A DNA stretch of 64,000 nucleotides from Sulfurospirillum sp. (GCA_045047115.1 JASFYR010000012.1:1-64000); one strand, 5' to 3'; positions 21,131-24,874 are shown, counted from the stretch's first letter. Numbers and translations are program-made. Notes: generated by a model from the sequence alone, not told the origin.

Positions 21131-21742
21131 ATGAAAATCACTCTTCTACAACACACATCATTATCAGTCTGTGCAAGTGCCATAAGAACTTGTTGGCAAA
21201 GTTTTGATAAAAGCGACAATGGCGGTGAAAAAGATAGAAAACTAATAGACAGGGTCGGCAATAAATTCAAACATGCTTCTACACTTGAACATCTAGTATA
21301 TACATTTTATATCCAAGGTATCAGCAGAGCACTGCTTCAAGAGTTAGCAAGACACAGAATTGCATCACTTTCAGTAAAAAGCACAAGATATACACTAAAA
21401 GAATTGAAAGAAGAAGAGAGCTTTACATACAGAGACTTTAAAAAAGCCGGTAAATATCTTGTGATGACAGATAATGAAAAAGTTAATGAGATGAGTATAA
21501 AAGCTTTAGAAAATTTAAGACTTATTTTAAAAGACGGCATAAGTAATGATGTCGCGAAATATTGTCTCCCGGAAAGTTATAAGACTGAGCTTACCTGGAC
21601 CATAAATGCAAGAAGCTTACAAAACTTTTTGACTCTTAGAAGCAGCAAATCAGCCCTTTGGGAAATACAAAATTTAGCTCATGAACTCTATGATAGCCTA
21701 CCTCATGAGCATAAGTACCTTTTTACATGTGAGAAACTTTAA
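21131..21742 (+). CDS. thyX: FAD-dependent thymidylate synthase
   Basis: [33 protein letters not shown]. Confidence 0.97.
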
Positions 21743-22202
21743 TACCATTTGCATAAGTTAATGCTATAGCTATGGCATCTGTTATATCAAGTGGTTTTAT
21801 CTCCTGTTTTATACCCAATATCCGCTTCACCATAAAAGCCACCTGCTCCTTTTTTGCTTTACCGTTTCCTGTTACTGCTTTTTTGACCTGAAGCGGTGTA
21901 AACTCATGAAAATTTCCAATAACCTGAAGTATCTTTAGACTCAAAGCACCCCTAAACTGCGCCAGTTTGAGCACTGTTTTAGGATTGTAAGCATAAAATA
22001 TATCCTCTATAACAACTTCATCAATTTTATGATTTTTAAAGATGATATCTAGGCCCTCTACAAGTTCGACTATCTGGTGTTGTAGGATTTTTTCCTTAAT
22101 TTTTATAAGCCCGGCTTCTACTAATTTTATCTCATTTTTATTCTTGTAGATTATCGCATATCCACAATTTTTTGTACCAGGATCTATACCTAAAATAGTC
22201 AT
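21723..22202 (-). CDS. ruvC: Holliday junction resolvase
   Basis: [32 protein letters not shown]. Confidence 0.97.
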
Positions 22203-22329
22203 CTTACTCCCTTTATTCATATACTTATTCATATAGTGAAAAACTTTTTCACATTAGATTTTGGGCATTTTAACATATAACTAATAATATTTTAGATAAA
22301 ATAAGTCAATATAATGTTAAGGGGTGTTT
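22203..22329. other. oriC1 subregion of a bipartite replication origin
   Basis: DnaA-box-like TTATTCATA (22213, 22225), TTTTTCACT (reverse, 22235) and TTTTTCACA (22245) between ruvC and dnaA, as in other Campylobacterota. Confidence 0.75.
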
Positions 22330-23652
22330 TTGTTAGCGGATAATGTACTAATTCTTTTAAAAAATGAGATATCCCAACAGGAGTATGAGAGATATATCAA
22401 ACAACTTGAATTTGATGAAAAGAACTCACACTCTGATCAAAAGGTATTTAGCGCTCCAAATGCACTCATTCAAAATTGGATAAAAACAAAATACACTGAA
22501 AAACTCTCACATCTCTTTGAAATAAAAACAGGTATAAAACCTGATATAAAAATTATTTTAAAAAACAGATCCCAATCAAACTTTAAAAAGACAAAAAATA
22601 TAGACATATATGAAGTAAATAAACCAACAATAAACACTATATTAAACCCTTCATATACATTTGAAAGTTTTGTAGTCGGAAGTTCCAACCAGTTTGCATA
22701 CTCTATCGCAAAATCTGTTGCAAAAAAACCGGGCATCGTGTATAATCCGGTATTTATCTATGGTCCAACGGGACTTGGAAAAACACACCTAATTCATGCT
22801 ATAGGAAATTATTCACAAAACCGAGGCAAAATCGTCATATATGCTACTATCGAGCAGTTTATGAATGATTTTACTTATAATCTTAAAAATCAGACTATGG
22901 ATAGATTTAGAGAAAAGTATAGAAACTGTGATATTTTACTCATAGACGATACTCAATTTTTATCAAATAAAATACAAACCCAAGAGGAGTTTTTTCACAC
23001 TTTTAATGAACTTCATGCTGCAGGAAAACAGATAGTCCTGACAAGTGATAAACCGCCAAAGATGATAAATGGCTTAGAAGAGAGGCTTAAAAGCAGATTT
23101 GAGTGGGGGACAATAGCAGATATCGGTATACCGGAACTCGAGACAAAAATTGCTATCATAAAAAAGAAGTGTGAATTAGACGGTATAGATTTAAATAACG
23201 AAATAGCAAGCTATATAGCTACAAATATGGGTGATAACATAAGAGAGATAGAGGGTGCTATCATAAATCTAAATGCCTACGCTACTTTGATGCGTCAAGA
23301 TATAACTATGGAGTTTGCAAAAAATGTTATGAAAGCTCAAATCAAAGAGAAGAAAAATCATATCACTCTTGAAGACATAATAAAAGTAATCTCAAGAGAA
23401 TTAAATATAAAACCAAGTGAAATAAAATCTAAAAAAAGAAATAAAAATATCGTAGAAGCCAGAAGAATCGGAATTTATCTAGCAAGAACTTTGACACCAA
23501 ACTCAATGTCTTCTCTTGCATTATTTTTTGGTATGAAAGATTATACGGCAGTTTCACACAATATGAAAAAAATAAACGAACTGATAGAAACAAATGAGAC
23601 ATTTAAACTAAAAATAGAAGAGCTAAAAAATAAAATTTTGGTAAAGGAGTAG
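22330..23652 (+). CDS. dnaA: chromosomal replication initiator DnaA
   Basis: NPVFIYGPTGLGKTHL; QEEFFHTFN; NIREIEGA; TTG start after AAGGGG. Confidence 0.98.
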   Translation: MLADNVLILLKNEISQQEYERYIKQLEFDEKNSHSDQKVFSAPNALIQNWIKTKYTEKLSHLFEIKTGIKPDIKIILKNRSQSNFKKTKNIDIYEVNKPTINTILNPSYTFESFVVGSSNQFAYSIAKSVAKKPGIVYNPVFIYGPTGLGKTHLIHAIGNYSQNRGKIVIYATIEQFMNDFTYNLKNQTMDRFREKYRNCDILLIDDTQFLSNKIQTQEEFFHTFNELHAAGKQIVLTSDKPPKMINGLEERLKSRFEWGTIADIGIPELETKIAIIKKKCELDGIDLNNEIASYIATNMGDNIREIEGAIINLNAYATLMRQDITMEFAKNVMKAQIKEKKNHITLEDIIKVISRELNIKPSEIKSKKRNKNIVEARRIGIYLARTLTPNSMSSLALFFGMKDYTAVSHNMKKINELIETNETFKLKIEELKNKILVKE

Positions 23653-23795
23653 AAAGTTATATAAAAATATGTGAACAAATATGAAAAATTTATATTTTTT
23701 ATTCATATCTGTTTTACCTATTTTTAGGGTTTATAGTGTGGTTTTCACTTATTCAACCTAAGCTACTACTACTTCTATTTTATTTAAAAATATAA
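23653..23795. other. oriC2 with DnaA boxes, DnaA-trios and AT-rich unwinding element
   Basis: Boxes at 23670 (reverse TTGTTCACA), 23680 (reverse TTTTTCATA), 23699 (TTATTCATA) and tandem GTTTTCACTTATTCAAC, then CTACTACTACTTCTA trios (23763-23777) and an AT-rich tract. Confidence 0.85.
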
Positions 23796-23806
23796 AAGGA
23801 GATTTG

Positions 23807-24874
23807 ATGAAAGTTTCAATAAATAAAGGTGTATTGGAGACGATACTCATAAACACACAACCATATTTAGAAAAAAAAGATTTAAGCCAAATCACATCCC
23901 ATCTTTTAATAACAACAAATGATGATGAGTTGATCATAAAAGCAACAGACTTTGAGATAGGATTAAGTTATAACAGTAAAAATATAAAAATCCAAGATCA
24001 TGGAACTGCCACTGCAAATGGTAAAAAATTACTTGACATAATAAAAATTTTAAAAGATGATGAAGTTATACTTGAAACCATAAATGACAACCTTTACATC
24101 AAACAAAACAGTTCAAAATTTAAATTGCCTATGTTTAATCCAAATGAATTTCCATCATTTCCTCAAATTGAAGATAAACCAAAATTTGATATAAACAGCT
24201 CTTTATTTGTAAGATCTATAAAAAAAATAGCACCGGCAATAGATAATAATAATCCAAAATTTGAATTAAATGGTGCATTGATAGACATAAAGGATGATAT
24301 TATCAACCTCGTTTCTACAGATACAAGAAGACTTGCTATTGTCAAACTTGAAAACAATACAGGAAATCATTTCTCTTTAATCATACCTAAAAAAGCTATC
24401 ACAGAGATTCAAAAACTTTTTTTTGATGAAATAGAGATATTTTATGATGAAAATACACTTATAGCAAAATCTACAAATTTCCAATTTTTTACAAAACTTA
24501 TAAATGGAAAATTTCCGGATTATGAGAGAATTATCCCAAAAGAGAAAAACTATAGACTACTTTTAAACAGAGCAAAGATAGTAGAAGCTGTAAAACAGAT
24601 TTCCATCATATCAAATGAGATGAAAATTACATTTAGAGGTGATAAGATAATCTTTGAGAGTCTAAATGATGAAAATATAGAAGCAAAAACAGAGATAGAA
24701 TATAACACTGGTTTAGATACTGAGATTTATCTTGCAACAAACAGCAGATATCTTTTGGATTTTCTCTCAAACATAGAAAACAGTGATTTTACTCTTGGTT
24801 TTAATGACAGTTCTCTGCCATTTACACTGGAAGATGAAAATTTTATAACAATAGTTATGCCGATAATGATATAA
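23807..24874 (+). CDS. dnaN: DNA polymerase III beta sliding clamp
   Basis: KATDFEIGL; STDTRRL; LINGKFPDYERIIP; IVMP. Confidence 0.97.
   Translation: MKVSINKGVLETILINTQPYLEKKDLSQITSHLLITTNDDELIIKATDFEIGLSYNSKNIKIQDHGTATANGKKLLDIIKILKDDEVILETINDNLYIKQNSSKFKLPMFNPNEFPSFPQIEDKPKFDINSSLFVRSIKKIAPAIDNNNPKFELNGALIDIKDDIINLVSTDTRRLAIVKLENNTGNHFSLIIPKKAITEIQKLFFDEIEIFYDENTLIAKSTNFQFFTKLINGKFPDYERIIPKEKNYRLLLNRAKIVEAVKQISIISNEMKITFRGDKIIFESLNDENIEAKTEIEYNTGLDTEIYLATNSRYLLDFLSNIENSDFTLGFNDSSLPFTLEDENFITIVMPIMI

Follow-up and report, generated by a model that had tools for sequence, protein, structure and literature searches.

Organization of the dnaA region

The window, i.e. the whole stretch of 64,000 nucleotides of Sulfurospirillum sp. 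DNA that was analysed, contains flgE, thyX, ruvC (minus strand) and dnaA, dnaN and gyrB (all plus strand), as identified from open reading frames and Pfam domains. According to Jaworski 2016 (PMC5043019), bipartite epsilonproteobacterial origins typically lie at ruvC-dnaA-dnaN, the order found here, and the minimum of the cumulative GC skew, at about 14-24 kb of the window, spans this site. The features of the region are listed below, the DnaA boxes as placed with spacer alignments; T8, C8 and A8 denote the base at box position 8.

21723..22202, minus strand: ruvC (Pfam RuvC, E 5.6e-54), likely start MTILGIDPG at 22202
22213..22221, plus strand: oriC1 box 1, TTATTCATA, T8
22225..22233, plus strand: oriC1 box 2, TTATTCATA, T8
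22235..22243, minus strand: oriC1 box 3, TTTTTCACT, C8
22245..22253, plus strand: oriC1 box 4, TTTTTCACA, C8
22330..23652, plus strand: dnaA (Pfam Bac_DnaA, Bac_DnaA_C and DnaA_N; match to B. subtilis DnaA 8btg)
23509..23511, plus strand: TCT codon of Ser396 (P0001 numbering), aligned with B. subtilis Pro403 and E. coli Pro423
23542-23544, plus strand: TAT codon of Tyr407 (P0001 numbering), aligned with B. subtilis His414 and E. coli His434
23670..23678, minus strand: oriC2 box a, TTGTTCACA, C8
23680..23688, minus strand: oriC2 box b, TTTTTCATA, T8
23699..23707, plus strand: oriC2 box c, TTATTCATA, T8
23741..23749, plus strand: oriC2 box d, GTTTTCACT, C8, the twin box distal to the unwinding element (DUE)
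23749..23757, plus strand: oriC2 box e, TTATTCAAC, A8, the DUE-proximal twin box
23763..23777, minus strand: DnaA-trio-like repeats, CTACTACTACTTCTA (bottom strand TAGAAGTAGTAGTAG, TAG-type), kept in all relatives
23778..23798: AT-rich stretch, unwinding element predicted from the sequence
23807..24874, plus strand: dnaN (Pfam DNA_pol3_beta, three domains)

Box clusters are thus found on both sides of dnaA, four boxes upstream and three plus two downstream, at positions that the spacer alignments show to be conserved among relatives in the genus. The oriC1 cluster, in the ruvC-dnaA spacer, consists of boxes 1 (+), 2 (+), 3 (−) and 4 (+) directly upstream of the ruvC start and is followed by the dnaA promoter region; a longer ruvC open reading frame, reaching 22232, would overlay boxes 1 and 2. 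The oriC2 cluster, in the dnaA-dnaN spacer, opens with the minus-strand boxes a and b; after 10 bp comes box c (+), and about 33 bp further on are the twin boxes d and e, which overlap by 1 bp and are followed by the trio-like repeats and the AT-rich stretch before dnaN. By analogy with other origins, the AT-rich stretch would be the part that unwinds and the repeats may function as they do in the B. subtilis BUS; oriC2 is the place of unwinding in the relatives covered by Jaworski 2016 (PMC5043019). A first-pass annotation of this DNA had reported T8 boxes at 22213, 22225, 23699 and 23680 (−) and C8 boxes at 22235 (−), 22245 and 23670 (−), all of which were found again at these coordinates; the twin boxes, CTACTACTACTTCTA and the AT-rich stretch were absent from its list. 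Box-like 9-mers are also present within dnaA, TTATTCACA at 22809-22817, TTTTTCACA at 22991-22999 and TTTTTCATA (−) at 23562-23570, and in C. jejuni, binding of DnaA to boxes inside dnaA has been reported (PMC6052347).

The epsilonproteobacterial origins available for comparison, those of A. butzleri, S. denitrificans, W. succinogenes and H. pylori (Jaworski 2016, PMC5043019) and of C. jejuni (PMC6052347), share with the window the location at ruvC-dnaA-dnaN, an oriC1 cluster upstream and an oriC2 cluster downstream of dnaA, T at box position 5 and, in the DnaA proteins, the Lys of K-D-x. The twin boxes also have counterparts: in C. jejuni, boxes 1 and 2 share 1 bp and the former has A8, as is seen in d/e (PMC6052347), and ts1/ts2 of H. 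pylori match the twin-box layout, ts1 having A8 like box e (PMC5043019). By position and layout, the region is a putative bipartite origin of the epsilonproteobacterial type. The known origins combine the TTCAC core (positions 4-8), called strictly conserved, with a highly conserved D-H dyad in DnaA, and C8 is given as invariant in 33 footprinted epsilonproteobacterial boxes, H. pylori ts1 excepted (PMC5043019). In contrast, four of the eight main boxes in the window read TTCAT, and its DnaA has Tyr for the His and has lost the equivalent of Pro423.

The window has 12 matches to TTWTTCATA (6.64 expected), and a count of 12 was not reached in any of 100 shuffles. Three copies of TTATTCATA lie in the approximately 280 bp of spacer flanking dnaA, where arithmetic from the genome count (40 copies in the 2.14-Mb genome, observed/expected 1.1) gives about 0.005. 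With only 40 copies genome-wide, the copies in the spacers cannot be put down to chance. Neither T8 nor C8 9-mers were enriched across genome G000 (observed/expected 0.88-1.24), and a second box cluster comparable to oriC1 was not found in that genome, so there is no evidence of T8 boxes at other DnaA-regulated sites.

In some relatives (L006, L007, L008, L003/L141 and L129) the oriC1 boxes and the dnaA promoter are separated by a long-hairpin element. Its core, which is conserved, consists of CTTAGAGGCAAATCCTCCC, three variable bases and GGTCTGAGCCTCAC; locus-specific inverted repeats flank the core, and the element is inserted in either orientation. Genome G000 has at least five copies (C22:81612, C24:29571, C31:13723, C34:38563 and C38:4247), none of them at oriC1, and the element matched no Rfam family at gathering score. 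In L003 (G012) and L141, an insertion of about 280 bp separates the dnaA start from the promoter region of the gene, and the oriC1 boxes are displaced about 450 bp upstream.

The DnaA protein and its substitutions

The window protein is DnaA on all domain tests, a variant within the family and not a non-member. It contains DnaA_N (PF11638, N-terminal domain I, E 5e-9), Bac_DnaA (PF00308, the AAA+ ATPase domain III, residues 107-265, E 2e-64) and Bac_DnaA_C (PF08299, the C-terminal helix-turn-helix domain IV, residues 350-417, E 2.3e-21). It matches B. subtilis DnaA 8btg with E 1.2e-106, and its residues 347-429 match E. coli domain IV (1j1v, E 9.2e-9). A basic KKRNKN..EARR stretch is found in the sequence, and the Arg equivalent to E. 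coli R399 is described as kept in epsilonproteobacteria (Jaworski 2016, PMC5043019). The DnaA of G000 is about 86-87 % identical to its closest His-type sisters. The TTG at 22330 (MLADN...) is a likelier start than the GTG at 22324, being favoured by the spacing to the ribosome-binding site and by the relatives: the GTG overlaps the AAGGGG ribosome-binding site, and relative L002 has TTG alone. The protein P0001 was numbered from the GTG.

The signature (R/K)-D-H-(T/S) at the N-terminus of the recognition helix, a conserved feature of DnaA and not a formal family criterion, reads K-D-Y-T in the window protein. The codons ggt atg aaa gat TAT acg gca gtt tca cac encode GMKDYTAVSH, and this reading of the motif, with TAT at 23542-23544, agrees with that of the first-pass annotation. 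Six residues of E. coli DnaA make base-specific contacts, R399, P423, D433, H434, T435 and H439 (PMC2533591; PMC5043019), and according to the alignment to 8btg two of them, H434 and P423, are replaced in the window protein by Tyr407 and Ser396. The same domain, with K/R-D-x-T at the N-terminus of the recognition helix of the helix-turn-helix, is seen in E. coli domain IV on box R1 (1J1V, Fujikawa 2003) and in B. subtilis DnaA on boxes 6/7 (8BTG), but the window protein differs from both in having Ser for P423 and Tyr for H434.

Occurrence of the Tyr variant

His at the position of E. coli His434 is near-universal in DnaA, and Tyr replaces it in one small Campylobacterales clade. Among the matches listed in a contig search, which did not include close relatives and served as a diverse sample of bacterial DnaAs, His was present in all 79 proteins having the column and Pro at the Pro423 position in 63 of 80. 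Within the genus (14 genomes) a dnaA match was obtained in 12, with Tyr in five (G000, G003, G004, G009 and G012) and His in six. The single dnaA of G008 (L111 = G008:C190) is His-type and 58 % identical, lies on a 2.5-kb contig and is likely contamination or mis-binning. In the family (61 genomes) the motif was found in 55, and 50 of 56 dnaA sequences encode His and six Tyr; the sole Tyr beyond the genus is in G072, which belongs to another genus.

In a sample of 401 genomes of the order, only one additional Tyr-type dnaA was found, on a 6-kb contig of G274. The Tyr pattern had matched 33 stretches in 30 of the 401 genomes, five of them the known Tyr genomes. Ten further stretches were fetched, of which only that of G274 was dnaA, and 18 were set aside for an in-frame stop in the pattern, Cys or Trp following the Tyr, or a position far from the dnaA of the genome. 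G274 is labelled as another family, and its dnaA and oriC2 (L119 = G274:C74:1-4000) nest in the Tyr clade, where L119 is the sister of L129 (support 99/98); the contig is probably mis-binned. A metagenome scan gave 27 stretches, five of which were dnaA: L129, L141, L144 and L146 belong to the Tyr clade, and L145 resembles G072. The pattern G-x-[KR]-D-Y-[TS]-T-[VI]-x-H was found in none of 401 genomes of the phylum of Clostridium brassicae, which is a weak negative; the H/Y pattern matched only three of four test genomes there. No DnaA variant with Tyr at H434 was found described in the full-text papers searched; papers available by subscription may bear on this point.

The Tyr clade comprises five species genomes, the G274 contig and four metagenome contigs, a recurrence that rules out a sequencing error as the source of the Tyr codon. 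The clade is monophyletic both in a dnaA DNA tree of 27 rows (support 99/97) and in a 16-row tree (88/95), whereas G072 is the sister of the His-type G069, from another genus (96/94 in the 27-row tree). Tyr therefore arose twice.

Coupled loss of the Pro423 equivalent

A second substitution, which was not part of the earlier annotation, accompanies the Tyr. In the family, Pro (CCN) is encoded at the Pro423 position in 50 of 50 His-type genes and in none of the six Tyr-type genes, and there are no intermediates. The codon in the six Tyr-type genes is TCN in five and GTA in one, and the metagenome member L144 of the Tyr clade has GCT (Ala), so that the clade has Ser, Ala or Val at this position. 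By codon comparison, Pro423 to Ser and His434 to Tyr each require one C-to-T transition; both TAT and TAC are used for the Tyr across carriers. Comparison along the full length of the protein sets nine sequences of the Tyr clade apart from 19 family sequences with His at just four residues, 96, 396, 407 and 442, and of these four G072 shares exactly 396S and 407Y with the Tyr clade. Gain of the Tyr and loss of the Pro423 equivalent are thus perfectly coupled and arose twice. Speculatively, the loss of the Pro might give steric room for the larger ring.

Box position 8 in Tyr- and His-type relatives

The first-pass annotation had proposed a test for co-variation of H/Y with C8/T8 across related genomes. 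To compare position 8, eight orthologous boxes (1-4 and a-d) were tabulated for nine distinct Tyr-clade loci (64 cells) and seven His-type sisters (52 cells); L141, a near-duplicate of L003, was dropped. The boxes were extracted with a pattern requiring TTCA (TCA for box a) and, at position 8, either C or T. This pattern matched every locus where the DNA was present, and the invariance of the box core is therefore observed and not imposed.

The proposed co-variation was borne out: T8 was found in 22 of 64 cells in the Tyr clade, with at least one T8 per locus and C8 in the other 42, and in 0 of 52 cells in the seven His lineages, all of which have C8. Variation between C and T at orthologous boxes is confined to the Tyr clade in this comparison. 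There, position 8 is polymorphic in seven of the eight boxes, with a variability like that of positions 1, 3 and 9, which are known to be soft, and positions 5-7, including C6, are invariant in all 64 cells. Neither A8 nor G8 was seen in the eight orthologous boxes. The other G:C pair of the core, C6, serves as an internal control for simple GC-to-AT mutation bias.

The orthologue of box 1 is ..CACA in all six His sisters that have oriC1; box 2 has T8 in L001, L002, L004 and L129 and C8 in all His sisters; box 3 never has T8 in the Tyr clade; and box c has T8 in seven of the nine distinct loci. The number of C8 boxes among the eight is four in G000, seven in G012 and eight in G072/L145, the last being the same as in the His sister of G072. 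The twin box e (23749-23757 in the window; also considered in L004, L119 and L129) has A8 (TTCAAC or TTCAAG) in the His lineages and most Tyr genomes, and in the Val/Tyr subclade it reads TTCAT, an A-to-T change at position 8.

The T8 pattern requires at least 15 changes on the maximum likelihood tree, four of them at box b, and at least seven on any topology, all inside the Tyr clade. Summed branch lengths, added by hand from the 16-row tree, are about 1.17 for the Tyr clade and about 1.46 for the His part. The chance that seven of seven changes fall in the Tyr clade at equal rates is roughly P 0.004, a value that is only indicative, given the kinship of the loci and a tree made from dnaA itself. 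The terminal branch of G072 is short (0.09), and about 0.5-1.2 box changes would be expected on it at the Tyr-clade rate; its C8 boxes consequently neither replicate nor contradict the box effect. Since G072 has Tyr and Ser together with C8 in eight of eight boxes, the protein change can come before any box change.

A loose, alignment-free count of NTNTTCANN in both spacers gave 26 T and 39 C in the nine Tyr-clade loci, 13 T and 143 C in 21 His loci of the family and 10 T and 82 C in 14 His loci of the order. None of the TTCAT matches near His-type dnaA genes is at an orthologous box; an example is TTTTTCATA after the stop codon of L019, and G000 contains this word 313 times.

Discussion

His434 of E. 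coli DnaA may read the G opposite C8, for which the support is indirect: this G (G2) is protected from DMS by E. coli DnaA (Jaworski 2016, PMC5043019), and D433 together with L438 reads box position 7 (PMC8235120). The reading that we prefer, with a probability of roughly 0.6 from the sequence comparisons, is that DnaA with the Tyr and without the Pro takes either C or T at position 8, after which the boxes drift. Tyr at the His434 position and Ser, Ala or Val at the Pro423 position would relax the reading of position 8 so that T is admitted beside C, C-to-T changes in the boxes would become tolerable and accumulate in the origin, and the T8 boxes would still be bound by the Tyr-type protein. 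The protein would have changed first and the box drift would have followed. On chemical grounds the Tyr may contact the purine opposite position 8, e.g. through its hydroxyl to N7, which is common to G and A; such a contact would serve both purines alike and could be the reason why only C and T are seen at position 8. The limitation to C and T points to continued reading of position 8, the base being recognised as a pyrimidine or, on the opposite strand, as a purine.

Alternatively, the Tyr/Ser pair could be neutral or self-compensating and the reading of position 8 unaltered, the T8 sites being weaker or dead and tolerated in this clade for some other reason, such as box redundancy, cooperativity or altered DnaA levels. 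Low-affinity, non-consensus DnaA sites are used by E. coli and other origins. Effectively a single clade shows the box effect, and another lineage-specific change could coincide with it; this dependence on essentially one clade-level event is the weakest point of a relaxed reading as deduced from these comparisons. The independent Tyr lineage G072 is without T8 boxes, and A8 is present in C. jejuni box 1 and H. pylori ts1 (PMC6052347; PMC5043019). Those two are, however, single fixed exceptions alongside a His-type DnaA, whereas C/T variation in the Tyr clade extends to seven of eight boxes and consists of transitions only. Decay would not stay at position 8, yet none of the 64 cells differs at positions 5-7 although C6 is under the same GC-to-AT bias, and T8 is absent (0/52) from the His lineages in spite of their longer total branch length. 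We consider such a coincidence unlikely, while giving it some weight.

A directional change, in which the Tyr-type DnaA prefers T8 and selection converts C8 boxes one by one, would account for the restriction of T8 at orthologous boxes to genomes with the Tyr, for T8 in box c of seven of nine Tyr-clade loci and for the change from A8 to T8 in twin box e of the Val/Tyr subclade. It fits poorly with the 42 of 64 cells that still have C8, with box 3, which never has T8, and with box b, where the states seem to flip both ways over its four changes on the tree. Moreover, G072 (8/8 C8) and G012 (7/8 C8) live with nearly all-C8 origins, and a protein that disfavoured C8 would probably have been inviable when it arose. 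This explanation appears improbable, and a full switch to T8 unlikely. The first-pass annotation had suggested that the Tyr "relaxes or switches" recognition of position 8; relaxation agrees with T8 in 22 of 64 cells, but a switch does not, every Tyr-clade origin keeping C8 boxes, with seven of eight in G012, and the independent lineage G072 having eight of eight. Errors of sequencing or assembly, or chance matches, are practically excluded as the source of the Tyr codon and the CATA boxes, the Tyr being found in five genomes, G274 and four metagenome contigs as both TAT and TAC, the boxes being positionally conserved and the expectation for TTATTCATA in the dnaA spacers being so low.

It is an even question whether Pro423 to Ser plus His434 to Tyr, a step taken twice, turns a strict reader of C8 into a reader of a pyrimidine at position 8, with the origin drifting behind. 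If so, three stages may have been caught, for which the odds are likewise balanced: G072, in which the protein has changed and the boxes are untouched, G012, with one of eight boxes changed, and G000, with four of eight.

Almost no variation is assumed in the recognition of the DnaA box, and a TCAC core serves as a filter in origin finders for Campylobacterota (PMC6052347); such a filter would miss half of the boxes in the window. If the relaxed reading is true, the Tyr clade is a natural experiment that links a single base pair of the box to a single pair of residues, and the order of events in an essential protein-DNA pair would be a permissive change in the protein followed by drift of the sites. 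Matched His-type sister proteins and origins are available for biochemistry on how the specificity of an initiator evolves without loss of viability. The Tyr-type DnaA and its boxes would then represent a natural, minimal and recent change of specificity in an essential initiator-origin pair.
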